From Mytilus trossulus (Eukaryota): a stretch of DNA of 64,000 nt. The position numbers were made by a program, and so were the translations under genes. The notes beneath the pieces were generated by a model that saw only the letters and a list, made by a program, of their open reading frames with translations, was not told where the DNA came from and searched no databases. The stretch covers positions 33,594,313 to 33,658,312 of the forward strand of contig NC_086380.1 in assembly GCF_036588685.1 (NCBI RefSeq), read 5' to 3'. Below, piece by piece: positions 1 through 37,737 of this stretch; position 1 is the stretch's first letter, and the number at the start of each line of letters is the position of its first letter.

Positions 1-98
1 TTCATTGGAGAAGCTTATTTTTGTAATGAAATCTCTATTATCATAAACATTCTTTCTAAAATATTATTTTTAAGTCAACAGTTCTTTTATTTTATTAG

Positions 99-294
99 TG
101 AAGATCTAGCAAATTTGAGATACTTGACCTGTTTCTTAAAGGAAGTCATGAGATTACATTCGCCTGTATCCATTGTCAACAGAATGCTAGACCAACCTGT
201 TGTTACTGATGGTGTAGAGATACCTGCTGGGATATTAATAGATCTGGGTATTTACCATGCTCAAAATCATCCTGATGTCTGGCAAAATCCTACG
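99..294 (+). CDS. Cytochrome P450 (CYP4-like) penultimate-region exon. K-helix ...KEVMRLHSPV..., ends ...VWQNPT with donor gtaggt.
   Basis: Acceptor ttttattag at 90-98, donor gt at 295-296. Translation contains the ExxR-like K-helix and the W.NP motif preceding PERF. Phase is consistent with downstream exons. Confidence 0.7.
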
Positions 295-339
295 GTAGGT
301 CATATACATCATTGAGTTTTTTAAACTATTTTTTTTTCT

Positions 340-790
340 CTTTCAACCACCATATTGTCAACGACAATATGCTGCATCAAACAATAGACCACTTTCGAGT
401 TCATCCGTCACTGGAAAAAACTCGTCAATTATAAGCGCCTTTATGACGTCATTTACCAGATAGAGGGGGTCGCCTGTATCCCTGCACTATTTAGGTTCGT
501 CAAGCGTCTTAGTGATCGTCATTGTGCAGGATAAACTAGAAATAATGGTTTTTCTGTAGGTACTTAATGACAATTCCCTTTTGACAGCAATGATGGTTGT
601 CAATTTTGAGAATTCAATTTGCCAAATAATTCGTACAATATAGAATTATAGTTTTCCAACCACTCGCTCAACATTGGAATGGAAGTGACGATGCCCCTAA
701 ACGCACAAATGATGTTCACTAAAACCAGAGTTTTTGACGGAAATGCATCGAACTCGAAAGTTGTCTATTGTATCCTTGAATTTAATGAGA
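340..790. mobile_element. Interspersed SINE/MITE-like repeat (body part of the family also seen at 12350-12920) inside the P450 intron
   Basis: Long collinear similarity to 12440-12920 (…agaccactttcgagtt…caattatgcgc…tttaccagatagag…ctgcactat…caacattggaatggaagtgac…cagagtttttgacggaaat…cgaacttgaaagttgtctat). Confidence 0.6.
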
Positions 791-1028
791 CATCATAACT
801 TATTTGCAAATAGTAGCTGCAATTCATGTAGATAAAACATCTTATTTTCAACCTTTGCATGTAGTAATTATATTTATAGTACTAATCTCGTCCACATTTA
901 ATTCAAAGTATCAGATATCAAACTTGGTTTGATTTTAACCTTTGTGATAATTTTTTATGTGACAGTGATAGATCAGATATTGAAAAGAACAAAAGTCTTT
1001 ATTATGATCACTGCTTTTTCTTTTCCAG

Positions 1029-1111
1029 GAATTTAAACCAGAGAGATTTGAGGGAGACAAACATCATGAAATGGATCCATATAGCTTTACTCCATTTTCA
1101 GCTGGACCAAG
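1029..1111 (+). CDS. Cytochrome P450 exon encoding EFKPERFEGDKHHEMDPYSFTPFSAGP(R)
   Basis: Acceptor ttccag at 1023-1028, donor gtaatt at 1112. Carries the PERF motif and the start of the heme-binding loop FSAGPR. Confidence 0.75.
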
Positions 1112-2520
1112 GTAATTATTTCTCCATCCTTGATATGGGAGATAACGAGTTATTGTTAATAACTTTGTACCTTATCTAAAAACATTTTTGTATGGTAACA
1201 AGGAAAATATTTTTTTTATATATAAATTAATGAGATTTGAGGGAAACAAACAACATGAGATGGATCTGTATTCTAGTAGTTTGACCATATTTAATGAATC
1301 AGAACCAAGTAATTAATGATGTCACTCCCTTATCATTGAAAAACATCTCTTTTATAAATATCATGACAGGACACTTGAGCTATTACTCTATTTTTAGCTG
1401 ACTCAAGTTAATTAATTATTATCTCCCATATAAACAAAAATGGCTGAGATAAAGTTAATTTCACCTTGCTCTTTCGCCAATATTAATGATAGAAAAGAGA
1501 GGTAAACACTGGACATATTTGCCCTGAAATACTCAGGAAATTAAAAAAAGTTTATAATACCATTTTTTATCTTCAAAAACCATCATGAAAGTTTTCTCAC
1601 ACTTCAGTTGAAGTAAGTGAAATTTGAGTTATCTCCAATGTAAAGCAGAGATATTTGTGCAAGATAATCCTTATGAGACATCTCCTTATAGTTATGTTCC
1701 TATTTCTGTAGTTAAAAAGGTAAATATGAGTTAATTATCTAATAAACCAAAGAGATATTACGGGGCAACTTATGAGAAATATCCAATTATTTGATCAAAT
1801 ATTTTTAGAATTTTTTTTTTTTATTTATTTATCTCCCATATCAAGAATGGATATATTTATAGATTATCGTTGATTATCTCAACGAGATTGATTTTGTCGC
1901 TTGAGCTGGTACAGCGAAAGTGAGAAAAGCAATCGAGTTGAGATGACCAATGATAATCTGTTTATCGCTATTTTACCTGTGACGACGTTGTTAATTTCAA
2001 TGTCAATTTCGTTAACAACGCCACGTGGCTCCTTAGTTTCTAGCAATAATTTTTCCATATCAAGCGAGAAGCATGATATGAAAATTATCACAAAAAAAGA
2101 TCAAAGGAAAAATGCACAAAATAGCGATAATGAGTTTTACACCAGTTTTTTAATGGACCAAATTTGAAATTCAATTCATCATGCTATAATTTGCAGTGAA
2201 GACAAATTTGTAGGCAATACAATGATATTTTTTTTTAAATTTAGTCACACCATATAAAGTCACTAATGAAAATATCAACATAAAATGTACAACTGCAAAA
2301 CAAAAAAATACACACAATTTACCAGAGTGATATGTTCATCTTTTTTTTACTGTGATGTTATTTTTCACAAAACTGATAAATATTATATTGTGCACACATT
2401 CATCAGTACTCATCATGCATAGAATGTATGAGATATTTGCCACTGATAATTAAGCAAACAATAAATAAAACAATTCTTTTCTCATCAGCACTTCTTGATT
2501 AATTTGTATCGATATAGTTG

Positions 2521-2721
2521 TATTGTATGAGGGGGATAGGACCTTTATCTGGACTCCGGGATCAGGTGTTTATAAGCTCTGGATTTCAGGATTGACCCTT
2601 TCAGGATCCGGGAAGTCTTGTTTTTGGAATTTATTTTTAATAGATTACTTTATTTAAATTCGGGACTTCAGGATTTCGTGTTTCTAAGCCCGGGATTTCG
2701 GGATCAGGACCCCTCCTATAC
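2521..2721. mobile_element. Small MITE with ~15-bp TIRs GAGGGGGATAGGACC / GGACCCCTCCTATACCCCCTC and internal GGGAT(T/C)TCAGGAT subrepeats
   Basis: Terminal inverted repeats can be read directly. The element is ~200 bp and non-coding. Confidence 0.5.
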
Positions 2722-2767
2722 CCCCTCTTGTATATGACGATTTAATTAATGTAATTTTACATTGCAG

Positions 2768-2833
2768 AAACTGTATTGGAATGAACTTTGCACAGAATGA
2801 AGAAAAAGTGATGATTGCAAGAATAATCAAAAG
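2768..2833 (+). CDS. Cytochrome P450 exon encoding (R)NCIGMNFAQNEEKVMIARIIK(R)
   Basis: Acceptor attgcag, donor gtacga. Completes the heme-binding signature FSAGPRNCIG, which is typical of the CYP4 clan. Confidence 0.75.
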
Positions 2834-3625
2834 GTACGAGAACAGTATTTTAAAAGACAAATACAAACCTACCTCTTTCAAAAATCAAATAAAGTCAAAA
2901 GTTATTGAAGATATCCCAAAATATTGCAAAAGTAAAGAAGTTATTCAAACAGAATTGCTTTTAAATTTGAAATCATATTTTATTTTAGTGAGAAAACTGT
3001 ATTTCGGTATTTTAATGATTTTTGTTACTTTGTTTATGATAGAGATAAGAGCTTAGTTATGCTTTGAGTCAAAATAATTCATCATAGATACAAGGATTAA
3101 AGTTGTGTATGCCAATTAAAGTTCGAAGTTGAAATAATTGATAGGTTGCTTTAAGAATGTAAGGGGCAAATATGACATGTTAATTAAAAATAAGAATATT
3201 TGATGGATTATTATAAAAAAAAAATACAAAAATGTTACCCTTATAATAATGAAGCAGTTTTTTTTTTGCTGTTTTTTTCTTTAAAGTTGAATCAGGGTCT
3301 TCAGAGTAAGTAAGAGAATGTTTATAATAATCAGCTTCATTGACATTAAATTGTACCTTTTTTACATTATATAAAGTTTAATTGCCAAGAATAAAAGAGG
3401 GAAGAAAGATACCAAAGGGACAGTCACAACTCATAAATCTAAAACAAACTGACAACGCCATGACTAAAAATGAAAAAGACAAACAGAAAAACAATAGTAC
3501 ACATAACACAACATAGAAAACTAAAGAATAAAAAACACAAACCCCACCAAATAACAGCTGGAGATAAATTCTGTAAATTGTAATTTAAGATCATGAATTA
3601 TACATATGATTTTTGTTTTTAACAG

Positions 3626-3731
3626 ATTTGAAGTATCACTAGATCCAGATCATGTTGTTGAACCTTTCATGGAGGTTGTCTTGAGAGCAAAAACTGGTAT
3701 AATGGTGAACTTCAAAGAAAGAGACTTGTGA
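3626..3731 (+). CDS. Cytochrome P450 terminal exon (R)FEVSLDPDHVVEPFMEVVLRAKTGIMVNFKERDL*
   Basis: Acceptor ttttaacag, in-frame stop TGA at 3729-3731, AATAAA-like signals 3780-3800. The four exons together give 150 codons in a single consistent frame. Confidence 0.7.
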
Positions 3732-6048
3732 AAGACTTTTCTGGATTTTTATGAGTGCTATTTTGCTAAAACTGAATTTAAAAATAAAATAAAATTACCA
3801 CCCATTAAATATATTAAAACAAGAATCACAGTATCAAGGAGTGAAGAGAGATTATTGCCTAAAATTATTTCAATTTTTTTTTTTTTTAAATCCATCAACA
3901 AGGGAGATAACTCATGGAAAATAGTGTTTTTTATAAATTGATATAGCTTTTAGAACAGAAGATACCTTAAAAGGAGAGTATTTGTACATTTTTAAAGATA
4001 TTTATAATTTTTATTTTTGTTGTGTATATTCCCATCAAATTGTTGAGAAAGTTTTGAAATTATTTTTATGATAGTTTGATGCTTACCTGATACATGTATT
4101 ATACTGGTTATATGTTTATACTCCTTATGCTACAATTATCTCTATAAAATGTGTTATGTTGGAAGGGATTTGCTTTGTGAGTGGAATTAGTTGGGTATCA
4201 GTTGAGGAGTGTTTTCTCCTGTTCAACAAACCCTAAAAAAATTGTAAGATTTAACATAAATGAAAGTATCAAATCCATTTTTTGGAAAAATCAACATATT
4301 TCATAAATATCTCATTTTATTGATGTGTAAAGCAGAATATTACATGTTTTACAGCAATAATAATTAATGTTTTTACTTTTCAATGCAAGGTTCCTTATGA
4401 TTTTTTTGTCAATTTTTTTAATTTATATTCTTATGAATGGACTTTTTTTTTATGTCACAGTCAATGCAAGTAATATTTTTATCTTATCAATTTTATTTCA
4501 ATATTTAAAATGTTTATTGTTTTTATACATGTATATTTGTTTTTGAATGTTTTATTCTGAGATTTAATTGTTACTGAGACTACTAGTTGTTGTTGCCTCT
4601 GTTTGATGTAGTGTTTTATAAATTATATATTGTAAGTATGAATGTCAGATTCTTTGTTAGTTTATACATTCTGGTTAAGGTGGTACCTAACACTACAGGG
4701 AGATAACTCTGTAAAATCAGCTAAACGTTTTAATGACGTTGTGTTGTTAAGGGAATATTAAGCTTCTCAATGATCAAAATTAGTGCTTGTCAAACTGCTA
4801 TATAACCAGTGTAATTTTTCTGATAAAATGGTTGGTTCAAAATTTTTAAAATTTTTATATTTTTGTTAAAGGGTCAAAGTAAATACGTAGTCAAAATTTT
4901 ATGAAAATTAAACGAGCCAAATTAATTTTAGTGAAAGTGTTGGGTACCACCTTAATGTTGTTGTGATACAGTCATGTCGACCTAATTTAAAGTTGATTTA
5001 TATTTTTTTTTAGGACATTTTTTTGTGAAGTAACAGTATATTATACAATATACGAAATATATGATTTGATTTCAATATCATAGTTAAATAATAAAAGATC
5101 TGAGAAACATAAATGTGAAGTTCTTTTCATATGAAAATTCAACATCATTAAAAAGGATACTTTTTTTTACATATTTATTTTATTTTTTTAGTTTATAGTT
5201 TAGAGAAAACTGCTATTGTCAAAATTACTAAAATAATAAAATGCATGAAAATAATAAAAGAGTAAAATTCTTATGCAGTTGTTATTGTTTAAAGGATTTT
5301 TAATTTTGTTGAATATTGTAACATTATGTAAGTTTGAGAGAAAATGATAAAATTTGTAAAAGTTATCATTGTCATTTCAAAGCTTATTCTGATATCCTTA
5401 GATATCTACTTTCTTGTATCCATGATCATGCAGGATTTGATGTTTAGAGTCAGATTCATGGTTCTCGCTGCAGAATTTATGTGCAACTTTTTCAGAGCTG
5501 CATGAATATAATATATAGATACAAGAAGATGTGGTATGAGTGTCAATGAGATCTAGACAACTCTCTATCCAAGTCCCAATTTATGAAAGTAAACCATTAT
5601 AGGTCAAAGTATGGTCTTCAACATAAAGCTTAGCTAGCACTGAAAAGCAAGCTATAAAGGGCACCAAAATAACTACATTGTGTATTGTAAATCATTCAAA
5701 CTGGAAAACCATCTGTCCAATCTTTAAAAAAAAAATTAAGAAAAACTTATAAATAAAACAAATGACAACTACTAAACATCTGATTCCTGATTGTTTACAA
5801 ACTTTTGCCATTAAGTTTGTTCTAGTTTTTAAAAGGTATGGTTTGTAATTCTGTGTTTAATGCTTCTTCTTGTGTTATTCCTCTTCTAATACAGTGTAAT
5901 GGAAATAATAGTATTGTTGATCTTCGAAGATTTGTCTGATACCAACATTGCAATGTCAATAAGAAATATTAAGAATAAAATAACGAAGAAGCAAAAGCCC
6001 AGAAAATTTAGACCTAAGAGAAAGACTATCACTTATTCTCAGTCATCA

Positions 6049-6213
6049 GTGGTGGATCCAGGGGGGTGGGTTCCGGAAGTTGGAATCCCCCCTTTTTTTT
6101 GGACGATCAATGCATTTAAATGGGAGCATATAGTTGGAACCCCCCTTTACTCTGGGTTGGGACACCCCCACCCCCCTTCCCCTTTTTTAAATGGCTGGAT
6201 CCGCCACTGGTCA
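6049..6213. mobile_element. MITE family with TIR CAGTGG(T/C)GGATCC, G/C-homopolymer rich, copy 1
   Basis: cagtggtggatccagggg at 6049 and ggatccgccactgg at 6200. Related copies occur at ~13775-13925 and ~57455-57625, sharing the internal atgcatt(g/t)a core. Confidence 0.55.
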
Positions 6214-6707
6214 TTGATAATGTTTTGTTGTGTCTGAGGTGATATTATCTTTAAACCATGGTGTCTGAAATTTTCATATTTTGCATTTTTTCCCCTGTGA
6301 TTCTTTCTTTGTACCTGTTAATAGATCTAATGGATAAAAATCAGTAAAAAAAGTCAAGAAAAAAGTTGTTTTTATGCTGTCTGTGCCAGGATTAGCTTTG
6401 TAGCAAATAAGTTTTCCCTCTGTCATCCCTTTATTCAGAAAGACCAAAGGAAAACAAGGTTCCAACAGAGCTTCAATAAGTTATAATTTACACCAAAAAT
6501 CAAAACTAGAAAATCGAAACCAGCAGCTGTATTGTGTTTGATATTTAAAAGTTAAAGAATGGCATTTTATTATTTTATATGAAAACATAAACATCAACTC
6601 AAAATATCACAAAAGATCACTCAGTCTAAATCACATTGCAATTTTCAACATTAACAATAAATTTCATTGCATTTGCAACATATAAATTAAGTCATGAAGA
6701 AAATCTT

Positions 6708-7514
6708 TTAAAATCTTCTTTTTTTGCTTGACGTAAAGGTCATTCTGTTTCCACTAGGTGGGGCAGTTACTCTTTCTTCAAGTTCTGATACTTGCTCTCT
6801 CAATAGACGAACCTCTCTTTCATACTCATTTTTCATGTGTTGTAATTTCATTCGAAATATTTCCTGATTTGTTGATGAACCATGTGCTGTTGTACTTGGT
6901 ATTTTTTGCCGTAGTTTTGCCAATTTACTTTCATATTCCATCGATACTCTAACAATCTCAGCTTCAGATTCCCTATTAGATGCTTGTAATTTTTCTTTCA
7001 GTTCTTCTACTTCTAAACTCTTTTTTCTTAAGAAAATTTCGTAACTCTCTTTCTCATTTTCTAATAAAATTTTCATTGAATTTCTAACATCTTCTTTCTG
7101 TTTTTCATTGTCAATCTCTATTTCTTCTAAAATTCTTTTATGTTGTCTTTCTTTCTCATTCATCTTTAAATTTGAATCTTCAATATCTGCTTTTAGCCTC
7201 TCTAAATTAACTTTAATTTCCCTGTTTTCTTCCTCAACGTCACAAATTCTATGTAAACTTTTATGTGTAGAATCGAGGACAGTTTGTAAATGGTCAATTT
7301 GATTCTCGAGCTCTTCATTTTTTGACGCAAGTTTTTGTTTATCATGAGAAAGTGCATTGACATCCTCCACTAGTTTTGACTTTTCCTTCATTAAACTTTC
7401 AGTAAAATTTTGCCAGTGATCAAAAGATTTCTGAAATTCATCTAAATCATTACTACTGGCAATTTTTCTTTTCACTGGCCCTGTCCAAGGTTCAGCTGGT
7501 TGTATTTTTTCCAT
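6708..7514 (-). CDS. Coiled-coil protein of unknown function (268 aa from MEKIQPAEPWTGPVKRK… to …SSKKRRF*). Single coding exon, with a probable upstream 5'UTR intron.
   Basis: Long uninterrupted ORF (293 codons in the ORF track) with heptad-like E/K/L-rich sequence throughout. On the coding strand a ttttttttttctcag acceptor lies immediately 5' of the ATAAAATGG start context. Stop is at 6708. Confidence 0.45.
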   Translation of the reverse strand: MEKIQPAEPWTGPVKRKIASSNDLDEFQKSFDHWQNFTESLMKEKSKLVEDVNALSHDKQKLASKNEELENQIDHLQTVLDSTHKSLHRICDVEEENREIKVNLERLKADIEDSNLKMNEKERQHKRILEEIEIDNEKQKEDVRNSMKILLENEKESYEIFLRKKSLEVEELKEKLQASNRESEAEIVRVSMEYESKLAKLRQKIPSTTAHGSSTNQEIFRMKLQHMKNEYEREVRLLREQVSELEERVTAPPSGNRMTFTSSKKRRF

Positions 7515-8104
7515 TTTATCTGAGAAAAAAAAATGAAATTCTAATTGCCAGCTCATAAAAATGAAAGAATGAAGATATAATAGAGACATTCTAACTCATC
7601 AGTCATGAATATAAATAATTTACTGACAACATCATGGCAAAAAAGACCAAAAGACATTTCACAAAACACAACATAGAAATGTTAGGACAGCAACCCAACC
7701 CCACCAAACGATATAAACATGATTATGTTCATGTAAAACTGTTGTCCTCTAATTCTTAAACAAATTTTCATTTTCCTGACATGTTAATTATTTTTATTCA
7801 ATCAACGATTGATTTGTTAGATCTCAGAACCTGGTCAAAATTTGATTATGACTTCAAATTTGCTTACTTTTCTCTCAACTTACTATTGAAAGTGAGACGT
7901 CATGAAAAAAGGCGACCATGTCTAATGACCTCACATACAAAATGTAGAAAGAACACATATTTTTGCAGATCAATCAAATCAAAGGACTGAGTTTGTTTAA
8001 TGTCTGCATATTGTTTAAAATTCATCAGAGAAACAGATTCCACCATCACAACATTTGCAATACAATACTAATCAACTCTCAACAGATAAATCTAAATATT
8101 TAAA

Positions 8105-8900
8105 AATAAGTCTAAAGAACCTGTGTTGCTCACATTAATCTTCAACTATGACCACTTAATAGTAAAAGTCATCATTAAATGACAATAATTCTATCAAGAA
8201 TTGACTAGCAATTACAGTCATGTTGACAAATATTTGATGATCTTATTCGCAAAATATTGGTAAAAAAAATCTTCAATAAAGGGCAATAACTCTAAATGAG
8301 GAGTCAACAGAAGATTTCAATTACTTTTTTTATAACTTTTTTGTAGATCTTGTTTTGTTTATCAATTTTGCTATTAAAATTTCTGTCATTAATTGCATGA
8401 GTTAGTCCCCTTTCATGACAATGTTAACTATTTATTTTCCAAGTTGCCCATTATTTGATAAATAGCAAAAACTATCAAGGAAATATCTGCAAGTAGTTCA
8501 GCAAAGAGCCTGTGTAGGTCACCTGTATAGATCTTCAACAATGACCACATTATAGTAAAAGTCATCAATAAAGGGGAATTACTATATTAAGAACTATTAA
8601 AAGTTCTAACAATTTCAGTCATGTTGACATATATACTTGTATTTTAAGATCTCATCTGCAACATATTGGTAAAAAATACATTTTAGGGCAATAACTCTAA
8701 TGAGGAGTCAATAAATAGGCAATTTCAGAAGATTTATTGACCACTTGACTTCTTTGCAGAACTTGTCTTACTAAATACCATTTTTGCTATTTAAATTTTC
8801 TGCCTTTTAAATGTTTTGTATGAGTAAGTCCCCGTACATGACAAATCAATGCAAAAATGGTCAAGAAAATATCTGCAAATAGGTCAGCTTATATTTTTTA
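8105..8900. repeat. ~410-bp tandem repeat, ~2 copies (…tcttcaac(t/a)atgaccac(t/a)t(a)atagtaaaagtcatca…gggcaataactctaa(a)tgaggagtcaa…)
   Basis: Units 8110-8330 and 8510-8740 align visually at ~80% identity. Confidence 0.5.
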
Positions 8901-9179
8901 TAGGTAAATTTGTCCTAAAAAAGTGGTTCTTTCAATTGATTGTAAATACGTACTGTAAATTCAGATACTATTGTGATGCTTTTATCATTGGGAAAATGAT
9001 ACAGGGTTATAATCGCAATAATTTATACTCACATTTTGAAATGTTTTATTTAAATCAGACCAGATTTTTCTCAATACCACAAATATCAAATTTGTATTAT
9101 AATTCTAAAATGTCAGCGTCATCAGAAGACAGATGGTTAAACCATCATGGTTTCCTGATAATAACTTTAGTATAAGTAA

Positions 9180-10245
9180 ATAGAAATCAATAAAACTTTA
9201 ACACAATGTTTATACTTTATAACCACTAAGAGGAAGGTTGGAATTGATTTTGGGGGTTATGGTCCTAAAGGTTCAGGAATTATAGGCCCAAAGGGACCCA
9301 AAACAAGCATGTATCTAGTTTCTGGACAATGAGTTGTGTATAAGTATTTCAATTGCTCTGAAATTGTACCACAATGTTAAATACCATAAGTACATGTAGA
9401 AGGTTTGGATTTATTTTAAGGTTTATGGGGCAAACAGTCTAGGCAAAAACTTACAAAGGGGCAAACAACAACCATTTTTCTAATTTCAGGACAATAACTT
9501 TTGTGAAACTGTATGGATGATATCTCTATTATAAAGGGAAGGCTGAGATTGATTTTTGGGTTAATTTCCCCAAACATGTAGGAATAAGGGGTCAAAAAGG
9601 TCCAAAAAGAAGCATTTTTTTTAGTTTACAGACAATAAATTTTATGTTTAGGTTTACAAATGTCTCTGAAATTATACCACATGTAATTAAGTTTCCATAC
9701 TACAAAGGGATTGGTATAGGGGTTATGGCTCAAATTATTTAGCAAATAGGGGCAAAAAAGGGGGGAAAATAATTTAAACAATTTAAAAGCAGTGTATTAA
9801 GGGAGGTAATCCAATTCCATTTAAAGAATATATATGTTTGATTACCTCCCTTACACTGATTGAAAATTATGTATGAAGAATTGATGATTGTCTTGAGATT
9901 ATTATATTACTGTAGAAGTTACTATTAATTAACATTAATGTTAACCATGACTTATCTTTATATTCTAATAGTTGATTATGTATTTAAATAAGTAGTTATT
10001 GTTGCAAACTCCATTAGAAATTTGAATTGAGATTATTTTTAGAATATGGAAAAGGGGGAGGTGAAAAAAGAGGGGGGATTGGGTACAATTTTTAGGGGAT
10101 TTTAATATTCAGAAGCATATATAGTGAATTGCTTATTGGCAAAAACAAATCTTTTTAGTTCATTAGACCACATTCATTCTGTGTCAGAAACCTCGATCTG
10201 TGGTCCTTTAGTATAAAGCTGCGTCTTGCGGAGCATCAGGTTTCC
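9180..10245. repeat. Degenerate fragment of the composite satellite-bearing element (see 26371-28250), ending in a copy of the element terminus …tataaagctgcgtcttgcggagcatc
   Basis: Subrepeats agtataagtaaatagaaatcaataaaacttt…ggaaggttgg(a/t)attgattttggg… resemble units at 26500-26950. The terminus motif at 10211-10240 matches 39001-39030 and 28210-28250. Confidence 0.45.
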
Positions 10246-10467
10246 TATTTTATAAAAATATACATGATACAACAAATGGAAGTTTTTAACGACCTTGACT
10301 GGCTATACAGCCCTTGCACTGCCAGTAATACTCACAGTGGGTTGTTTAGTGGATCAGACTAGGTTTTAATGTCAATGGCAGTACCAACCCCATTTAAAAG
10401 ACCAACTAAACAAGCCCCTGTGCTTTGCACCTTTAGTCTTTTAGTTTTACTTTTCAGTTTTAGCCTT

Positions 10468-10829
10468 CACAGGTATTTGGGGAATGGACCCCCCTTTTTT
10501 TTTGGACCTCACTAAAATAAAATTTTGGCGTTTTTTTATTCATTTACAATTTTCTACAATGTATAAACATATATCAAGTCTCAACAATCCATTGCTAGTC
10601 GATTACAATATTTTTTTTACTATCCATACGAGCCCCAAGTGAAAAAAGTCTTTTTTCACTTGGGGCTCGTATGGATAGTAAAAAAAATATTGTAATCGAC
10701 TAGCAATGGATTGTTGAGACTTGATATATGTTTATACATTGTAGAAAATTGTAAACGAATAAAAAAACGCCAAAATTTTATTTTAGTGAGGTCCAAAAAA
10801 AAGGGGGGTCCATTCCCCAAATACCTGTG
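10468..10829. repeat. Near-perfect 362-bp palindrome (foldback element). Arms of ~180 bp, centred at ~10648.
   Basis: The left arm cacaggtatttggggaatggacccccc…ccccaagtgaaaaaag is the reverse complement of the right arm, with about 2 differences (T9 vs T8, attcatttac vs attcgtttac). Confidence 0.85.
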
Positions 10830-11669
10830 TTAGCCTTGACACAAAATTGTGTTTTTCCAGGAATATAAATTTAGATATTGGAATATTTTTGTATAACCTG
10901 TAGCTTGAAAAACGCCTGGTTACCCATGTTTAAAGCCATGATATAAAATCCATTTTTGCAAATAATTATAAACTAGAACTGTGAATTTAAAAATTAAAAT
11001 CTTGCCCCTCCCCCTTATAATTGTTTTTTTTGTGTTTTTTTATCTAAAATTCTTGCATGATCGTTAGAAACATGGGAAATGGATTTACCGATCATTAATT
11101 ATGGCAACACTTGATAATCTTGGTTCTTTTAGTTCATTGACAGTGATGTCTTCTTCTCAGTTGTGTAAGACATGAATGCAGACGATTTTTCTGAGCAGAC
11201 ATAAAATACAATCTTCAACTTCAAGTGCTATTTTTATATTATTTAAAGCTCTTGGATAACCATGAATCGGGATTTCCCCTGTGTTGTAATTTCTAAAAAT
11301 AACTTCTTGATGCATTGATTGGTCAAGTTCAACCACGCCTACATTGCGGTAAAACCGGAAACTTGTGAAAATAGTGTTAACCGGACTTGACTGGTCAGAA
11401 CAAAGTCAAGAAAGTTCAACCTCGACAAGGTAAACAGTTAAGTAAACGTTTGAAGAAGTTATTACCAATGTCTTGAATGTCTGACATAATGTCATAGCAT
11501 ATGATTCCAGCAAAATGAAACCGAAAGTAACAGGGCACTTGCTAAAGTTGTAGGTTTTCCTAAAACTTTGTGTCGCAGTATCATTTTTCATGCAATTTTA
11601 CTATATATACATGTACATGGTATGTCAGATAAAATGCTTTCGTACTATATGCATATTTTTTTTTAATAT

Positions 11670-11860
11670 AGGAAGATGTGATACATGTGAGTGTCAATGA
11701 GAGATCATGAGACAACTCTCCATCCAAATAACAATTTAAAAAAGTAAACCAGTAAAGGTCAATGCAAGGCCTTTAACACAGAGCCTTGGCTTACATTGAA
11801 AAAAACAGACCACTATCGACTGTATCCCTGCACTATCAACACAGAGCCTTGGCTCACATG
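11670..11860. mobile_element. SINE-like family head copy (…gtgtcaatgagagatcatgagacaactctccatccaaat…)
   Basis: Shares a ~150-bp head with 12355-12500, 5521-5660, 25841-25990, 33361-33500, 46181-46320 and 49981-50060. Confidence 0.55.
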
Positions 11861-12349
11861 AAAATTAATAGATATAGGAAGATGTGATGTGGTTACAATT
11901 GCGCAATTATTTACAATGCATTTTCCATAGGGTACCCTGTCTCTTTGAATCCTAATAAAAAAAAAGTACATAAATTGCAGAGAAACCAAAGCCAGAATCT
12001 GAAAGGAGACATACTAAGAATTTATTTCAGTAAAAAAAAACAACATGCTTATGCGGCGGAAATTGCCTTAAATAGCTGTTGTTATGGACGCTTCCAAAAT
12101 CCGCACTAAATGACATAGCAAAATTTTCAGTCAACCTATTACCACAAAAAAAATATTTCCACAGAGAATACTAAATCAATCATTCCAAATTGTTACTATT
12201 TTTGCACAAAAATGGTTTATCTTTCATAAAATCAATAAATTGAAGGTATACCATCCAATCAGAAGCCTCATAGATTTTTTTCCTTACTACCATCTTGGGT
12301 TCAAAAACTTCCTGGTGAAATGTAAACAAATAATTGCGCAATTGTAACC

Positions 12350-12920
12350 ATGTGATCAGTGCCAATGAGAGATCATGAGACAACTCTCCATCCAAATAAC
12401 AATTTAAAAAAGTAAACCATTATAGGTCAATGCAATGCCTTCAACACAGAGCCTTGGCTTACATCGTAACAGACCACTTTCGAGTTTGTCCTTCACAGGA
12501 AAAAACTTGTCAATTATGCGCTCCGGTGTGACTTCATTTACCAGATAGACTGGATCGACTGTATTCCTGCACTATAAATGGTCAACAAATTGGTAAAATT
12601 ATCAATGTGCAAGAACTTTTTAATTGTTCATTCATTGTGAAATGGCAAATTTATTTTACGTTTTTCCATGAATATATAATAATACATCCCCCTTTTACGA
12701 CCCTCTTTGTTCTGTATGTAATTAATCACAAGGACAGCTGTGCTGAAAGACAATTTATATGAGAATTCAATTTGCTGAACAATTTGTATAATATGGCTTT
12801 ATAGTTTTTCAACCACACACTCAACATTGGAAAGGAAGTGACAACGCTTATAAATGCAAGAATTATGTTTAAAATCAGAGTTTTTGACAGAAATATATCG
12901 AACTTGAAAGTTGTCTATGT
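12350..12920. mobile_element. SINE/MITE-like family, near full-length copy (head plus body)
   Basis: The head matches 11690-11860 and the body matches 361-790. Confidence 0.6.
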
Positions 12921-13774
12921 GACTTCACAATGCATTCTTAATAGTTTGAAAAATGAGAGGAGGATATGTATGTGAAATCCAAATAAAAGTTATTGTCGAT
13001 TATTTTTAAAACTGTAATCATTTCTAATTAGAACTCTGACATGACTGAAGCATTATATTTTATATTTCTTTTTGTTTATATTCTGTCCCTATACTATCAT
13101 GACTATTGTGATTTGGAGATGAATGACGATTTAATGTGTGATAAAGTCAAGAGAGTAGCAAAGGCCTTAGCGATAACAAAAGTTGGTGAATGTTGGAATA
13201 CAAAAGAGAGTTGAAGATAGTTAGTGTCATAGAGAATGGATGTGTCTCTTTATTTAATATGTTTATATATATGTAAATTAGTTTTTAAAGCCAGTGTCTA
13301 TGAATAGCCCTATGACAACTATTGATCTGTTTTAAATGTGTGTTCCCATTTCTTTCTTCAACAGTGTCTGGGTGCTGACACAATGATCATAGCTAAACAA
13401 TGTACAGGTGTATGAAACAAATGATTTGAAGATAGATTTTCTGTCAAAGTTTCATTTTAGGATTCAATTTCAATTTTATCCCCAGTCAAGGGTTGTAACC
13501 TGTTGCCTCTCACTTTACTATAACTGTCAGTGTAACATGAAAGTGGCACTTAAAGTGGTCATCTTTTTGTCTTCTATCTATATAGCTCACTTTGCCTTCG
13601 ACAATGACCCTTATGATCATCATGAATACATGTAGCCCATGTTAGTACTGAAGATAATTTGTCATGAGATGATATCACGGAAAAGGTCTCTAATCTGTAG
13701 TGCTCAAGGCTCTGAAGTTTGTCATTTCAATTAATAAAGAAATGTGATTAGCCTTATCATTTATTTGTTATCTG

Positions 13775-13925
13775 GTACAGGGGTGGATCCAGCTTTTTTA
13801 AAAAGGGGGGTTTCCAACTAAGGACAAAGGGGGGAGTCAAACTATATGTCCCCTTTCAAATGCATTGATTGTCCAAAAAAGGGGGGTTCCATCCCTAGGA
13901 ACACACTGGATCTGCCACTGTGGTA
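13775..13925. mobile_element. CAGTGGCGGATCC-TIR MITE, copy 2
   Basis: ggtggatccagc…atgcattgattg…ctggatctgccactgtgg. Confidence 0.45.
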
Positions 13926-16838
13926 CTTCAGAAAGATGGTAAAAAGTAAAATCACGAAAATACTGGGACAGCAAGAAGGTAAATTAATAGATTTTTTTCA
14001 CCACCAATCAGACAACTATAAACTGATGTAATTTCTGTCATCTAGCTTCAGATTTTATAAATGAGGTACCAAAAGAAAGAAGAAAGATTGATCTTTCAAA
14101 TGGTGAATGATAATTTCATTACAACATAATTATTATGTAATTAGTTGCTATATTGTGATGTCCACACTTGAATGAAATTAGCTTCTTTGTTATTCATAGC
14201 ATCCCAAAATATTTTATAGATTCTTTTACAACAGACATGACAGAGTGACCTCCAAAACTGTGTCTCAGATTTTCCCTATTTTATTCATTCTCTCATTAAT
14301 AAAACCTTCAATGCAGTATGAAAACTCAATTCATAAGAGATCACTAAATTGGTTAATAAATTTGTTCTATTGATGTTTTGAGAAATCTAAGATAGGGTTT
14401 GAAGAAAGTATAAAAAATATTTATTTTATTATAGTGTCACATATTGATTGACAATATTTACAAATCACAGTATTCAATATATATATAGCCCTCACCTGGA
14501 GAACTGTTTTAATTAGTTTTATCATACTTATATTCCTTCTCAAAGAAACAAAAAAGATTTCGTAAAATAAATGTTGTTTATCTTTTATGTCAACTAAATA
14601 GTACAAAATGTTTACATTATAAAAATATTTTTGATATGGATAAAATTTTGTTGTAAACACTATATTAAAGTTTTGAGTTTTATGTCAGTACTTGTAAACC
14701 AAAAAAAACAATCATATATATCAATTGAATTATATAAACAGTAACTTGTTATAACCAGCAACAAATGAAAAATCCAATTGACGTAAATAGGTAAGCTGGT
14801 TGTGAAATCCCCATTTCTATTTTTAGACTTTACTGTATATTCTGGAAGTATTGCACCACTCATTGCTGACTAAGGTCAGTTATTTGTTTGAGCCAGCATT
14901 TTTATTACGCATAAATTGGAGAGCTTTTATGTGAGTAAATTATTTAGCAAAATGTTTAGATGGTAGCTATACACATTTTGTCAACTGTTTGAAGTTATAA
15001 TGTAACCAAGCATGTAGCATTTGACCTACATTGATTATTTATCTGCACTCTGGAACAAGTCACCAACTGAAAGTTAATTTTGTAAGTTTAGTTACTTTTT
15101 TTACAAATTATAGAAGGATTATATTGAAGAAAATTTTTTGAATTTATGAACTTGAAATATTTATATTCCGACATGATAATGCTGCAAAGTTAAATTTCTA
15201 ATTTTTTATAGTAGCTACTGTACATGTAGCTAGATTTCTCATAAAAAAAAATTACTGTGATTTTATTTTAGTCAAAATATAACTGTGTAAATACATTTTT
15301 TTCTCAAGCTGATTACTTGCTGAAAGTTTACCACTCATCATCAAAGGTACAAAACAATTAAGCCGGTAGACGGAAAATGTTTTTTTTATACATTAATAAC
15401 ACAAGGCCATGACATATAGCTGATTTTACCCAATGAAATAATGATAGCACAAGGAATCAATTTAATATAAAAGGAAATAAAAACCTTGACTATTTCCTAT
15501 TTTTCTATTCCAATACAATCATTTAGCATGTTTTAACAGATATGCAAAGGTACACAGTGATTTAAACATGATTGCTTATAATACAAGTGTGTGTCAAATT
15601 ATAATCACTAAAATCAATATTTATATATATCCTAGTAAATAACTTGAATGCTTGGTTGGGTACATATTGATTAGCTCAGGAAGGTTAAAGTGTACTTATT
15701 GTGAATAGTATGTTTGGCTCGTATCCAACCAACCTGTAAATCCTTTCATTAGTGTCAGCATTTTATCAGGTAAGCTCTTGACATAATAAAAATATATATA
15801 TGTCTGCATAATTTTCACACATTTTTCTCAAATTATACAAAAGATATATATAATATGCAACTAAATTTTTAACCGTATTCTTTAAACAGTGAAAATTAAA
15901 GGTTCAAAATGTAGGACAAAAATTAATGCTGATCAATTAAGTAAAATCAAATGTAAGGTATATATTTCATAATTTTTCTTTTGCTTTTAAAATGTATGAC
16001 TTCTTAAAGATGTTATAGGTTTGATAAAGTATAATACATGTATATACTTAATCTTGATAAGAGCATATCTAGATCATATGATTGCCAATGAAAAAACTCC
16101 CACCCTTCATCTGTCATCTTCGTTTTATGTTAATGTAATGTTATAAGTCAGCTCAGGGCCTGAGGATCTTAAGGTCATTTGGTCCAAATATATTGTATTG
16201 GATAGACGGACCGAGACCACAATTGTCGTCCCTTGATTTTCGTTGTTCACGAATATAGTACCTAGTGTTGACAGTGGGTTACTTGCCATTAATTTTTATA
16301 CCCCTTCCAAATTTATTTCTCCATGTTTAAAGCCTCAAATTGCAAGAAGGGGGGAGGGGGGGTGGGAAATTACATTGCCTTTCCTAAATACTACCTGCAT
16401 CAACTTTCATTAAACTAATACCTTTTTGTAATAAGACATCTATAATTTTTAGGTGGTGCAAATTGTTTTTTGCTTTGTGAGTCCATTTGTCTGTTTGTCA
16501 GTCTGTTTAAGTAAGAGCATCTGTGTACTACATGTAAGGACACATTCTTGTTTTATTTATTTGATGGTGATCTGACAGTTTGCAGAGAATCTCACTATAA
16601 ATGCAGATAAAAAATGTGTAAAATTAATAAAATCTGCTTCAGTCTGACAAGTGTTCTCTATAAATTCATGTACACAGCAGTCCATCAGTGTTGTCCTATC
16701 AAAGATTATACTAGCATTTTTTTATTAATGTCACAAATGACATAATGTTAAAAAATGGTTTAGTCGGTGAGGTATTAAACCACTAAATGATTAATTATTT
16801 TTAATTATAGATAATATTGTAATACATCCACCATCATC

Positions 16839-16978
16839 ATGTCTGCACCAAGGAGATCAGCCGATGAGCCTATCTACAGAATACCACCATATTATTATTT
16901 ACATGTATTGGACCAAAATCTAAACATCACAAGACTAGAGATTGGTCCACAGACCTTCATTAGACAAGACAATGAAAG
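16839..16978 (+). CDS. MVP: MVP-A exon 1 ([46 protein letters not shown], phase-2 end)
   Basis: ATG at 16839, donor gtaagg at 16979. Confidence 0.8.
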
Positions 16979-17363
16979 GTAAGGACTTTTTCTATAGAGT
17001 GCTTCCACTTAACAAAAGGACCACCTACATATCTTGGACATATGTTTGATCAGAACCTTGAAAAAACAGAACTAGAAAAATTCCATAGACCTTTCTTTTT
17101 AATGTAAGGCCATGAAAGACAATTTTGTGTAATCACTACTAACTACTTCATTATATACAATGAACAATTATTCTTGATATTATTCTGCAATTTTTATTCA
17201 CAAAAAGAAGGAATTGTTTTTAATTAATGAAAATTATATTAATTTTTAAGTTTTTTTTCTTTTTACCTGTTTAAATTATTATTCTTACATTTCTCTAAGC
17301 TATTACTGTAATCCAAAGGGAAAAGCTAATGTATCATATACATGTGCATTTTTTTACTTACAG

Positions 17364-17559
17364 AGTTGTATATGGACCTGAGCGTATGATCACTGTCCCC
17401 CCAAGGCATTATTGTATTATTGAAAACCCAGTACTGAAAGACAAAGAATGTAAAGTTGTTTTTGACGAAAGTGGACAGGCCAAACTTGTACATGCTGACC
17501 AGGAGATTAGATTGGCACAGGATCCTTTCCCACTGTACCCCGGGGAAATACTGAAACAG
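17364..17559 (+). CDS. MVP: MVP-A exon 2 ((R)[65 protein letters not shown])
   Basis: Acceptor tttttacttacag, donor gtatga. ORF-track frame 17329-17565. Confidence 0.9.
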
Positions 17560-18462
17560 GTATGATGTACCATTATGCTACACTTTGTTTTCATGTACAA
17601 TGTATTACTGTATGGCAATTATGTTGGCAGGGTGTGAATTTTTGCTTATTTTAGTGGATAGAACAAAATTGCCAAAATAAATTCCTCCTATATAAAAGTT
17701 ATCATGCAAAGGTATTGATAAAATGGTTGAATCCACCATAACAATAACCACCAAAGTATTTCGTATACCTTATTCAATGAAAATCGCAAAATTTACTTCG
17801 CTATACAGTATATTGTAACTTTACTGGTATAATTATTGTCAACTTCATGGAGAGGAAGTTTCATATTGAGGACAAAAGGATCTGTTTTGCTATCTAGCGA
17901 ATCAGTTGCTACTTTCATCGCTGGCATAATTGCTCAATTGCAAGGGATTTTGTAAGCATTTATCTGCTAGTCAGATGATAACATCTGCTTTTGAAATATT
18001 AACAGATACAATTTGAATAAGATCTGAGGAAATTGACTTTTTGAATTTAAGAGTCATGCTTTTGTTATTAATGCATTATAAAATATGTCAGGATGTTGAA
18101 AGCAACTTTTGTAAAATTAAAATTGAAAAGGAAGTAATCATGTTTACAAGGTAAAATGAAGGTCTTGTTTCTATATAGTACAGGTAACATTTAAAATTTG
18201 TTATTAAATCAACATTGATCAGTAGAGTGACAAGGAAGTAAGATGTCTTAGATGTTTAAGTTGATAGCACACACCTTTAAATGTCGTTCACCAAATTAAA
18301 ATGACATGATGTTCAATAGTTAAACTACTATTTTCAAGGTTAACAATATTATGTATGATTTAAATCTTCTTTCATTTTTTGATATTCATAATATTAGGGC
18401 TAGGTTATTATGATGCGAAAAGTGTTAGCAGCAAATTTTATTATCTCCCTTATTGTTTATAG

Positions 18463-18813
18463 GTTGTAACTCCCTTGAAAGTGGTAGCTGCCAACTCAGC
18501 TCTTCGGCTCAGAGCTATTTTAGACTTTGAAGATGACGATGAGGAAAAGAGAACAGCTGGGGATGAGTGGCTATTTGAAGGACCAGGAACATATATCCCC
18601 AGGAAAGAGGTTGTTATTGAGGAGACTGTCAGGGCCACAGTCATTAGACCTAATCAGGCCATTAGACTGAGGGCCAGGAAGGAGACTATTGACAGACAAG
18701 GTGTTGCTAGGGTAACTGGTGAGGAATGGCTGGTGAAGAAGACCGGAGCTTACCTCCCAGGAGCTTATGAAGAAGTTGTGGATGTTGTCAACGCCTATGT
18801 TCTAACAGATAAG
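18463..18813 (+). CDS. MVP: MVP-A exon 3 ([49 protein letters not shown]…NAYVLTDK)
   Basis: Acceptor tttatag, donor gtaaag. ORF-track 18475-18828. Confidence 0.9.
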
Positions 18814-19163
18814 GTAAAGAGGCTGTAGAGGGTACATAAAATGTCTTTTTGTGGAAACATGAAAGTAAAAAATTCAAATTTACAGTGAAATTATATAAGC
18901 ACATTATTGTACCAGCACAAAATTTAGGTAGATTTTAATTTAGAAAAAAATAGATGGCATTTGATGTTTGTTTAGGCAAGACCCTACAATACCTTATAAA
19001 AGGTTACTATCTATAATACATGTTATTGAGAGGAGAAAAACCTATAGAATAAAGAGTAAATCATACCAAAAATATACAGTACTCCTTTAATTGATGATTC
19101 TAAATATGTTTGGAGGAAATATGTATATTAAAGTTATTAAATATTTTCTTTCACATCTTGCAG

Positions 19164-19289
19164 AAAGCCCTTCATATGAGGTCATTGAGAACATTTAAAG
19201 ATGACTTTGGTGTAACAAGAAAGAACGGAGAGGAATGGTTGATCAAAATGACAGACACAGAAACACACATACCTAATGTGTATGAAGAG
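19164..19289 (+). CDS. MVP: MVP-A exon 4 (KALHMRSLRTFKDDFGVTRKNGEEWLIKMTDTETHIPNVYEE)
   Basis: Acceptor tcttgcag, donor gtatgt. Confidence 0.9.
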
Positions 19290-19749
19290 GTATGTATCAT
19301 GTGTATTGCACTGGTGTAAAATAACACATAATAAGGTAGTCATATGTTCTTTGTATCAATTCAATATTAACTTACTGTACATGTCCATACAAGTAAATGT
19401 AATGTTTTCAATATCTTTAAACCAGCTGGTTAACTGGAACCATTTATACTTTTGCGTAACAAAATGATGGGGAAAAGTGTCAAACTTACGCAAAGCTTTA
19501 TAGAAAATGTAATTATAAATTGTACAAAATTGTCTGAAAAGGACTAATCCTTAAAAACTATCTCTGAAAAAAATTAATTGGTTTCCTTGTTTTAATCTCC
19601 AGAACCTCAGTTGATTGCACAGGGATCATTTTCTATAACCATAATTGATAAATGATTTACCTTAATTTTACATAAGGAACATTTATTTATGGAATGATAT
19701 CAATGTCTAGCTTCTGACTTTAATGGACATGACTTTATTTTTTCATCAG

Positions 19750-19860
19750 GTTGTTGGAGTAGTGAATATTACCACATTAACCAGCAGACAATACTGTATC
19801 ATCCTTGACCCTTCAGATGAGCATGGCAGACCACAACTTGGTAGAAAGAAGTTAGTTAAG
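19750..19860 (+). CDS. MVP: MVP-A exon 5 ([37 protein letters not shown])
   Basis: Acceptor ttttcatcag, donor gtatgg. Confidence 0.85.
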
Positions 19861-20171
19861 GTATGGTGAAAATTTGTTTCATGAGAAATAACCCCTTCAT
19901 TCTATTATCATGATTATAAAACAATATCAATTACTACTTTTACTTTACTTTAGGAACTGTGAAAATAATACAAACTTAGTGTGTACTGCAAAATACAATG
20001 CATTTAAAATTCTTCTTTTGGTTGGAATTTGATGTTTCTTATAATTTATTGATATAAAAAAGTTTTAATAACAGAAAATTCATTATTTTTTATCAAGGGT
20101 CACAGCTTCTCTTTATGGTGCAGAGAGAAACATTTGATTACAGTACTCATAATTTCAATTTTTTTTTATAG

Positions 20172-26431: not shown

Positions 26432-26484
<53 letters not shown>

Positions 26485-28250
26485 CGAATACTTTTAGTTT
26501 TCGCACTCTAACTTTAGTAAAAGTGAATAGAAATCTATGAAATTTTAACACAAGGTTTATGACCACAAAAGGAAGGCTGGTATTGATTTTGGGAGTTTTG
26601 GTCCCAACATTTTAGGAATTAAGGGCCAAAAAGGGCCCAAATAAGCATTTTCTTTGTTTTCGCACTATAACATTAGTTTAAGTAAATAGAAATCTATGAA
26701 ATTTTGACACAAGGTTTATGACCACAAAAGAAAGGTTGGTATTGATTTTGGGAGTTTTGATTCCAACAGTTTAGGAATTAGGGGCCAAAAAAGGGCCCAA
26801 ATAAGCATTATTCTTGGTTTTCGCACAATTACTTTAGTGTAAGTAAATAGAAATCAATGAAATTTAAACACAATGTTTATGACCACAAAAGGAAGGTTGG
26901 TATTGATTTTGGGAGTTTTGGTCCCAACAGTTTAGGAATAAGGGGCCCAAAGGGTCCAAAATTAAACTTTGTTTGATTTTATCCAAAATTGAATAATTGA
27001 AATTCCTTGATATGCCGAATCTAACTGTGTATGTAGATTCTTAATTTTTGGTCCCGTTTTCAAATTGGTCTACATTAAGGTTCAAAGGGTCCAAAATAAA
27101 ACTTAGTTTGATTTTGACAAAAATTGAATCAGTTGGGTTCTTTGATATGCTGAATTTAAAAATGTACTTAGATTTTTTAATGTTGGCCCAGTTTTCAAGT
27201 TGGTCCAAATCGGGGTCCAAAATTAAACTTTGTTTGATTTCATCAAAAATTGAATAAATGGGGTTCTTTGATATGCCAAATCTAACTGTGTATGTTGATT
27301 CTTCATTTTTGGTCCTGTTTTCAAATTGGTCTACATTAAAGTCCAAAGGGTCCAAAATTAAACTTAGTTTGATTTTAACAAAAATTAAATTCTTGGGCTT
27401 CTTTGATATGCTTTATCTAAACATGTACTTTGATTTTTGATTATGGGCCCAGTTTTCAAGTTGGTCCAAATCAGGATTCAAAATTATTACATTAAGTATT
27501 CTGGAATAGCAAGAAATTTTCAATTGCACAGTATTGCACAATAGCAAGAAATATCAAATTGCAGAGTATTGTGCAATAGCAATTATTTTTTTCAATTGGA
27601 GTTATCTTTCTTTGTATAGAATAGTAGTTGAATCAACTTTAATCATTGTTTTATACAATATACAATGTATTTTCATTTTTACTACCAACTGATAAATTAA
27701 AACAATCTTTACCATTCAGTGATAACAAGCACTTTTTATAACATTTTAATATTGTATGATGTATTTAAATGAGCAGTTATTGTTGCAAACTTCATTAGAA
27801 ATTTGAATTGAAATCAGTACATTATAACTTTAGTATAAGTGAATAGAAATCTATGAAATTTAAACACAAGGTTTATGACCATAAAAGGAAGGTTGGTATT
27901 GATTTTGGGAGTTTTGGTCCCAACAGTTTAGGAATTTTGGGCCCAAAGGGTCCAAAATTAAACTTTGTTTGATTTTGACAAAAATTGAATCCTTGGGGTT
28001 CTTTGATATGCTGAATCTAAAAATGTACTTATATTTTTAATTATTGGTCCAGTTTTCAAGTTGGTCTACACTAAGGTCCAAAGGGTCCAAAATCATAATG
28101 TGACATAAACCTATGTTGTGTCAACTATTTAATCACAATCCACATTTAAAGCTGTATCAAACTTAAAAGTTGTGTCCATACTTGTCCCATCTGTTCAGGG
28201 TTCTACATCTGCGGTCGTATAATGCTGCGCCCTGCGAAGCAACTGGTTCA
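26371..28250 (+). mobile_element. Composite TIR-bounded non-autonomous element inside MVP-A intron 10. Termini are TTTATACGACCGCA … TGCGGTCGTATAA. Interior contains a (GTC)n microsatellite (26433-26484), a ~160-bp satellite x3, a ~117-bp satellite x5-6, ~35-bp cagtattgcacaatagcaagaaat repeats and a unique tail.
   Basis: The two ends carry the same 13-nt motif in inverted orientation. The whole structure recurs on the - strand at 38996-41335 and 43921-45905. Confidence 0.65.
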
Positions 28251-29562
28251 TCTTTGTTACCATCCATCCGTGGTTTCCTTTTGTTAATATAAAATATTAT
28301 AATAAAATGATTCCATAAACAATCGTATAATACTAATATATGTATTAGGTCTTGTCAAAACTTCATCGTGATTAGGCCACGTTGCCATGTTTGTTTTCTT
28401 TGATCACGTTGATGACTTAATTAATATCTCCACAATCTAGCTTTATCCTTGATTATCATACGAGTTACAATAACGTGTCATATTTAATTGCAATACAAAC
28501 AGTTAAATCTTATTGAATTATTTGCATGTGCAAAATAAGTGTCGAACATCGTCTACGTTTGAAAATTATTTGGTCGCCATTTTGTTATATGTAACTTCGA
28601 AATTTTATCAAAACAAATAGCATGTATCCACTTTAACAGAGGGAAATAATGTTTAATTCTATGCTGCATTAAGGTAAGACAATTATTGAAAAGACATGAA
28701 TCTAACAATTTTTCGATTTTCATCGTACAAATCTTTAAAAATATATATTCCCATGTCGCCCCAAGCTAACAATGTACATGCAAACTGCATGGTCGGTGCA
28801 TGTAAATCTTTATTTTTAGTGTGAGAGACTGTTTCTAATAAATATATTGAAGAACATGTGAAAATAGAAATTTCTTAAGTACAAAAAGACACACTTTGAT
28901 AAATGTCTTAAATATTACTTTTTACATTTATAACTAAATTAATACCGGCATGTCATGTCGTTCTGAACCTTCAACAGTGGCCGCCATTTTGAAAATATTG
29001 CTGAAGACTGCCAAAATATGAACTTTTCAACCAAATTTCGAAGCAAAAAGTTTAATACCTGAACTGATATGGTTTGCGATTTCATTTAAAGGAATATGTT
29101 GTCGATCTTTTTAGGGGTTGGAAGGATATAAGTTACAATAAATTAGTTGAGAAAATTGATTTTACAAAAAGGTCCCATTGCAATTTTATCGAGTTTTAAC
29201 GAAGATGTCAACGAAGGCTGTGTGGCTATGTCACCTCAATTTTCAAACTTATTTCGAAGCACGAAATCATATTTCTGAACTAAAACTTAAAACATATTTA
29301 ATTGTAAAAACTTATTAACTGTAAAACGCGGGGTTGGGAGGGAAAATATACATTATAACAAAAAAGTTATGACCGTTTTATCTATGTACCCCGTTCACTT
29401 TCATTGATAATCAATCGGCCATTAATGATATACAACTTAAGTGTAAAAGTCACGTGATGAGGGAGATAGTTGGATATGTGAACCCTATTGTTGGGAACCT
29501 GTACATGATTTGGTTGTTCAGAAACAAAAGAATTATATTCTTTTCATGCTTAGGCCTTTTTT

Positions 29563-37700: not shown

Positions 37701-37737
37701 CAATGTTAGATCTGTAAATTTGCTTTCGCAAATTTTT

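Follow-up and report, generated by a model that had tools for sequence, protein, structure and literature searches.

The window analysed here, 64 kb of the Mytilus trossulus genome, carries a 362-bp palindrome at 10468-10829, within a 9.7-kb spacer that separates two divergently transcribed genes, a CCDC152-like gene and the gene for the major vault protein (MVP). From the palindrome it is 2.9 kb to the start of the CCDC152-like gene and ~6.5 kb to the first MVP exon that can be recognised. The CCDC152-like gene is a single-exon open reading frame of 293 codons (6711-7589, minus strand) encoding a coiled-coil protein, for which the closest database matches come from Mytilus. Over 270 residues the window protein is 100% identical to XP_063397557.1 (CCDC152-like), a RefSeq protein of M. 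trossulus; identity is 95-97% in M. edulis, 94-95% in M. galloprovincialis and 87-89% in M. coruscus and M. californianus. A weak Pfam match of this protein to MbeD_MobD (22.8 bits, threshold 21.6) most likely reflects coiled-coil compositional similarity and not homology. On the other side of the spacer, exons encoding the Vault repeats and the shoulder domain of MVP run on the plus strand from 17299 onward. The initial annotation had placed the palindrome ~6 kb upstream of MVP in a repeat-rich interval. The distance is right, given that the first Vault-domain exon is detected at 17299-17562 (+), and so is the description of the interval, as the segments 9145-9420 and 9929-10193 have matches at several non-orthologous positions of other Mytilus loci. 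The M. edulis MVP model (GCA_905397895) starts further upstream, at 6382-6384 of the M. edulis locus (window ~11073), ~240 bp from the orthologous insertion point. The model opens, at a great distance upstream of the first Vault exon, with an 'exon' that consists of a single ATG and runs straight into a GT donor; the donor after that ATG is missing in M. trossulus (ATGGGA). This lone-ATG exon is probably a gene-predictor artefact, and with a first 'exon' of that kind a promoter-proximal position of the palindrome was dropped.

Elsewhere the window holds repeats of several kinds. Three copies of a composite element lie at 26433-27582 (inverted), 39557-41260 and 44576-45857, the second and third in direct orientation ~4.9 kb apart. 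Its blocks are tandem repeats of 35 bp, 135/261 bp and 161/321 bp beside a (GAC/CGT)n or GACGCC microsatellite, and it resembles the bivalve mobile elements that carry satellites. A 58-bp minisatellite of ~30.6 copies (93% match, higher-order period 174 bp) occupies 53436-55485, where GC is at its highest for the window (0.43) and a strong A-over-T skew of +0.34 is seen, and yields a ladder of 57-codon open frames on the plus strand. Other candidate elements with terminal inverted repeats are located at 29549-30445, 32792-32980, 51254-51446, 1118-1856 and 37536-38681. Among them are an 897-bp unit with 36-nt inverted repeats that are 97% identical, whose open reading frames of 134 and 140 aa have no Pfam match, a 189-bp MITE-like unit with 41-nt inverted repeats, and a complex of 120-126-nt inverted repeats adjoining a 39-bp tandem array. 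Closer by, 45 bp to the left of the palindrome, lies a 90-bp mini-hairpin (10333-10422) with 23-nt arms that are 83% complementary. It starts with CACAGTG and ends with CCCCTGTG, and a flanking duplication is absent; it may be a decayed relative of the palindrome, or a coincidence.

The palindrome itself was described in the initial annotation as two arms of ~180 nt with two differences and outer ends reading CACAGGTATTTGGGGAATGGACC, and all of this is borne out. The arms measure 181 and 180 nt on either side of a 1-nt centre, and they are 98.9% identical over 181 aligned positions (Table 1). In a gapped alignment one difference is a substitution, A at 10542 versus C at 10756 on the plus strand (A/G), and the other is the length of a homopolymer, T9 at 10495-10503 versus A8 at 10795-10802. 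The outer 35 nt are 100% complementary. As single-stranded DNA the unit is predicted to fold into a single uninterrupted hairpin of -207 kcal/mol; shuffled controls have a mean of -32.6 kcal/mol (z = -42), and none of 100 folds as well. No tandem repeat was found in 1-20000 (TRF), and the arms are without tandem subrepeats, holding only three dispersed TACAAT hexamers. Open reading frames within the palindrome reach only 52-54 aa, and although each arm carries a 65-codon stop-free frame, no Pfam match was found for the arm frames, so coding capacity is absent. Terminal inverted repeats, a flanking target-site duplication and small size without coding capacity are hallmarks of a MITE, and the 362-bp unit shows all three. 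Searches of Rfam returned miRNA precursors (MIR447, MIR2606 and others), the best at 91.8 bits against a gathering threshold of 200. These matches are to plant long-hairpin models and occur on both strands; therefore they reflect structure only, and they were rejected.

Table 1. Coordinates of the palindrome, its parts and its flanks in the window
Feature	Position	Strand	Remarks
M. trossulus-specific block holding the palindrome, 628 bp, ~260 bp of which is other sequence	10270-10897	.	M. edulis locus L001 aligns to 10269 and again from 10898
Left copy of target-site duplication, TTAGCCTT	10460-10467	.	identical to 10830-10837
Left arm, transposon terminus starting CACAGGTATTTGGGG, 181 nt	10468-10648	+	reverse complement of right arm save 1 substitution and 1 indel; 81-83% identical to L007 3180-3334 and L008 44-204
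Outermost 27 nt, conserved, CACAGGTATTTGGGGAATGGACCCCCC, presumably the terminal inverted repeat itself	10468-10494	+	near-invariant in window arms, L007 and L008; homology starts at first base
Conserved 66-nt subterminal core, TACAATTTTCTACAATGTATAAACATATATCAAGTCTCAACAATCCATTGCTAGTCGATTACAATA, three TACAAT motifs	10545-10610	+	best-conserved block in alignment A2
Unpaired centre base T	10649	.	
Right arm, same terminus inverted, 180 nt	10650-10829	-	
Mirror of conserved subterminal core	10688-10753	-	sequence and alignment A2
Right copy of target-site duplication, TTAGCCTT	10830-10837	.	identical to 10460-10467

A feature not noticed in the initial annotation is a perfect 8-bp direct repeat, TTAGCCTT, that abuts both ends of the palindrome. 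The repeat begins exactly where the palindrome ends and cannot be extended by one base on either side. The chance of such an 8-mer match is 3.7e-5 by base composition, and the empirical rate for any 362-bp interval in the window is 2e-4. A short direct repeat found without mismatch on both sides of an inverted-repeat unit is the signature of transposase-mediated insertion. A palindrome could also form without any transposon, by local inverted duplication through hairpin-primed break repair or template switching, in which case the 8-bp repeat would be chance microhomology. Fold-back repair can yield palindromes, and there is a short inverted microhomology at the centre, GAAAAAAG-T-CTTTTTTC; the flanking repeat, however, is direct, 8 bp long and exact. 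Moreover, the relatives of the arm described below tell against a purely local event.

The initial annotation raised the question of further copies of the arm. None was found in the 64-kb window (blastn, word size 7; terminal 20-mer scan, 3 mismatches), where the terminal 20-mer occurs only at the two palindrome ends, with 0 expected, while two related metagenome loci share the terminus. They were found through their supposed proteins. A phmmer search of 1.84 billion representatives, with the stop-free frame of 65 codons from the arm as query, matched only two proteins, P0024 (E = 1.7e-11) and P0025 (E = 8e-4); word-indexed protein searches with the arm frame and with the three-copy alignment gave no match. 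P0024 comes from 2806-3411 of L007 (3749 bp) and P0025 from 96-596 of L008 (716 bp), both of them ENA metagenome contigs, L008 from the Baltic Sea water-column project PRJEB22997. The two proteins share motifs, e.g. TGIW.MD.PFFL and LQFSTMY..I.SLNNPLLVD, yet they are singleton gene calls in which no Pfam domain was found, P0025 reads TGA as Trp in L008, and neither stored protein is reproduced by translating its contig under the standard code. P0024 and P0025 are spurious database entries, the translation of a transposon end.

At the DNA level, L007 and L008 are 81-83% identical to arm positions 1-150/160. Alignment A2 sets the window arms beside L007 and L008. Every copy becomes similar to the others precisely from CACAGGTATTT (CACAGG) onward, and the flanks before CACAGG are unrelated among L007, L008 and the window. 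The similarity fades at around position 160, after which L007 and L008 enter different, non-palindromic and non-coding interiors with no open reading frame longer than 81 aa; both contigs end before the other terminus, 415-510 bp into these interiors. A sharp terminus shared at dispersed loci identifies the arm, therefore, as one terminus of a DNA-transposon family that is spread through mussel-like genomes. Judged from its conservation in the alignment, the subterminal core of Table 1 is a candidate transposase-binding region. The fold-back transposon proposed in the initial annotation is thus supported by the exact 8-bp duplication together with two independent loci that start at the same CACAGG terminus. 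The same annotation offered a hairpin-primed repair event; as a purely local process without transposition, this explains neither the duplication nor the exact family termini. The arm occurs at two unrelated loci with the same sharp boundary, the flanks of L007 and L008 are unrelated to those of the window, so that these are not one orthologous locus, and a single-copy 'parent' arm was not found beside the site in related species. We give an origin without a transposon almost no credence.

L007 has further, unrelated repeats in common with the window (33438-33534) and M. coruscus, and its GC content of 32.5% is like that of the window (~33%); for both reasons it is mussel-like DNA. Its interior contains a direct repeat, 3467-3520 and 3643-3696, ~176 bp apart (…atggatattttgaataa..gaatg.actgctgcgaccct…), which suggests an internal tandem-repeat domain like that of other bivalve MITEs. 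No further family member was found in ~168 kb of other Mytilus DNA with an nhmmer family profile. A single match of the terminal 20-mer in JGI metagenomes fell on a GC-rich bacterial contig with no palindrome and was set aside as chance. The terminal motif and conserved core had 0 matches in IMG/VR and GTDB, collections that, like JGI, are almost without animal DNA, and a text search of the literature with the terminal 13-mer retrieved unrelated primer sequences only.

Orthologous 20.8-kb loci were obtained via the neighbouring CCDC152-like protein from five assemblies, two of M. edulis (GCA_905397895, L001; GCA_963676685, L004), two of M. galloprovincialis (GCA_965363235, L003; GCA_900618805, L005) and one of M. 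coruscus (L002). The arm sequence was not found at the orthologous interval in any of the five (L001-L005). In M. edulis L001, 34-35 bp of unrelated sequence stand where M. trossulus has the 628-bp block that holds the palindrome, and the outer flanks are colinear and in one orientation; the block has no match in L002-L005. The palindrome is lineage-specific within the compared Mytilus. A clean empty site was not found among the five assemblies, because the relatives are also without ~260 bp of the element's flanks. The intergenic DNA around the palindrome differs by ~14-22% from that of M. edulis. A 56-nt match to the arm, 75% identical, near a P450 gene at three loci has no inverted-repeat context and was rejected as AT-rich chance similarity.

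Is the palindrome real, or was it created by sequencing and assembly, as the initial annotation cautioned? Fold-back chimeras are a known artefact of long reads, and a chimeric read arising from a missed adapter or a strand switch could have mirrored one real arm; the T9 versus T8 homopolymer difference, moreover, belongs to a typical class of sequencing error. Such a read, however, would mirror the flank too, whereas here the palindrome ends exactly at the family terminus, the 8-bp duplication recurs right after it, and the DNA beyond keeps the original orientation and aligns colinearly with M. edulis. The A/G difference, likewise, falls at a site where the outgroup copies mark one arm as ancestral: L007 and L008 both carry the left-arm base A, and since both match the left arm, it is the right arm that carries a derived transition, which fits a genuine duplicate that has aged a little. 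An artefact is accordingly very improbable.

The arms are 1 substitution in 180 nt apart, with an identity of ~99.4%, and the family members differ from the arm by 17-19%. Read from these distances, the arm pair appears to be a young duplicate, although conversion inside the palindrome is another way for its arms to stay alike. The recent origin claimed in the initial annotation is consistent with the near-identical arms and with absence from the five Mytilus assemblies, and on these grounds the insertion may well be recent.

We conclude, with a probability of roughly 0.85, that the same transposon end, present twice in inverted orientation, makes up the whole palindrome, a fold-back MITE that is fully palindromic and non-autonomous. 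Its formation can be pictured as follows. About 181 nt of one end, on a nascent or broken strand, would fold back at GAAAAAAG/CTTTTTTC and prime synthesis on itself; alternatively, a broken element, or one copied in part, could undergo a template switch with the same inverted duplication of a single end as its outcome. Either route would yield a 362-bp unit with two perfect ends usable by a transposase. A DDE-type transposase, presumably supplied in trans by an autonomous relative, would then excise the unit and paste it into TTAGCCTT, where staggered 8-bp target cuts and gap filling would produce the 8-bp duplication. An origin from a single end is most likely because the symmetry reaches one central base, and because ~20 nt of each arm are not clearly common to other family members.

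Alternatively, the palindrome may never have transposed as a unit. A longer family member would have inserted and made the 8-bp duplication, and its interior and one end would have been replaced later on site, through aborted excision with fold-back gap repair, conversion of long terminal inverted repeats, or deletion of the middle. Longer members do exist, as L007 and L008 are non-palindromic after ~160 nt, and a second palindromic copy was not seen in the ~168 kb of Mytilus DNA searched with nhmmer. The family could also have inverted repeats of ~160 nt and a variable middle, like many fold-back families, and because L007 and L008 stop before their other end, normal ~160-nt inverted repeats that lost their middle may apply here. 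However, the symmetry to a single base includes the ~20 nt of each arm (10628-10648) that are not clearly in L007 or L008, and only by coincidence would a deletion join two long inverted repeats at mirror-image positions. To rebuild an exact terminus on site beside the right-hand duplication, too, needs an extra precise step. Remodelling on site is therefore unlikely, and a fold-back MITE that was inserted as a finished unit remains the preferred reading.

To which superfamily does the element belong? From the 8-bp duplication hAT, some MULE, P and Merlin are possible. Two groups with similar termini were rejected. Transib and RAG-like elements have CAC heptamer-like termini and a 5-bp duplication; CACAGGT resembles the CACAGTG heptamer, but the duplication here is 8 bp, not 5 bp. 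CACTA/CMC elements (EnSpm, Chapaev, Mirage) have CAC termini and a duplication of 2-4 bp; the CAC termini are common to both, but again the duplication is 8 bp. DNA transposons and MITEs, including hAT and MULE, are abundant in bivalve genomes, where hAT is among the richest DNA-transposon superfamilies (PMC10294476). A typical hAT element has an 8-bp duplication, which fits the palindrome, and the terminal motif YARNG, which the terminus CACAG breaks, position 3 being C and not a purine (PMC3014272). Mar in Drosophila is an example of a MITE derived from hAT (PMC3517528). hAT inverted repeats are usually 10-25 bp, whereas here the whole element is inverted repeat. A hAT origin would imply mobilisation by a transposase with BED, RNase-H and hAT dimerisation domains, encoded by an element with the same ends. 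Non-autonomous MULEs, with long inverted repeats of 100-200+ bp, fit the palindrome better than hAT in this respect. Their typical duplication is 9-10 bp, in a range of 8-11 bp (8 only sometimes), so that the 8 bp of the palindrome, seen at one insertion, is at the edge. MULEs are present in all molluscs analysed (PMC10294476). In the P superfamily (P, 1360, Galileo) duplications are 7-9 bp (PMC3698922, PMC4168063), and the 8 bp of the palindrome is within this range; the partner of such elements would be a THAP transposase. The curated DDE families of bivalves do not include P elements (PMC10294476).

Functionally, the nearest analogues of the palindrome are palindromic MITEs such as human Made1 and fold-back elements that have no middle domain. 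FB-like elements (Drosophila FB, Galileo) consist mostly or wholly of long inverted repeats, and the middle can be absent, as found here; such elements can extrude cruciforms and promote rearrangement. Fold-back families also exist in sea urchin, Ciona and plants. Classic FB elements have arms of hundreds to thousands of bp with tandem subrepeats and 9-bp duplications, whereas the arms of the palindrome are short and without subrepeats. Galileo, of the P superfamily, makes 7-bp and rarely 8-bp duplications (PMC4168063). Human Made1 is a palindromic MITE derived from Hsmar1 and the source of mir-548 hairpins (PMC1784062). Like the palindrome, it is short and non-coding, with two inverted termini, a near-zero loop, a target-site duplication and a near-perfect hairpin. 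Yet Made1 is an 80-bp Tc1/mariner element with a TA duplication, whereas the palindrome has 362 bp, an 8-bp duplication and CACAGG termini; because of this duplication and these termini it belongs to a different superfamily. BuT5 is a MITE that shares only its ends with the master P element (PMC3698922). The window copy, L007 and L008 resemble it in sharing the terminal ~100-160 nt with unrelated interiors; unlike them, BuT5 is ~1 kb long, has 3-bp inverted repeats and is not palindromic.

The palindrome is thus an ordinary repeat for a bivalve genome, of a kind already known, and no host function is implied. A long hairpin repeat can be expected to form a cruciform or hairpin, possibly with local instability, and to give a hairpin RNA if transcribed. 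Genome annotation should mask this fold-back MITE and treat the locus neither as an assembly error nor as a gene, and spurious open reading frames of this transposon family are already in protein databases as P0024 and P0025. One could go further and see here a still-active, undescribed lineage of mytilid DNA transposons, with CACAGG termini, an 8-bp duplication and no textbook terminal motif, of which the palindrome would be a very recent and still mobilisable M. trossulus insertion, and whose 181-bp hairpin may be a source of small RNAs or make the site fragile and prone to rearrangement, in a region rich in interspecies structural variation; we hold this to be improbable. Should the family prove active, tools for transgenesis in bivalves could make some use of its ends. 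Regardless, the palindrome offers a clean case of a MITE that seems to have arisen from just one end of a transposon, and in the Mytilus edulis species complex it is a candidate marker for structural polymorphism as well as for recent activity of transposons.
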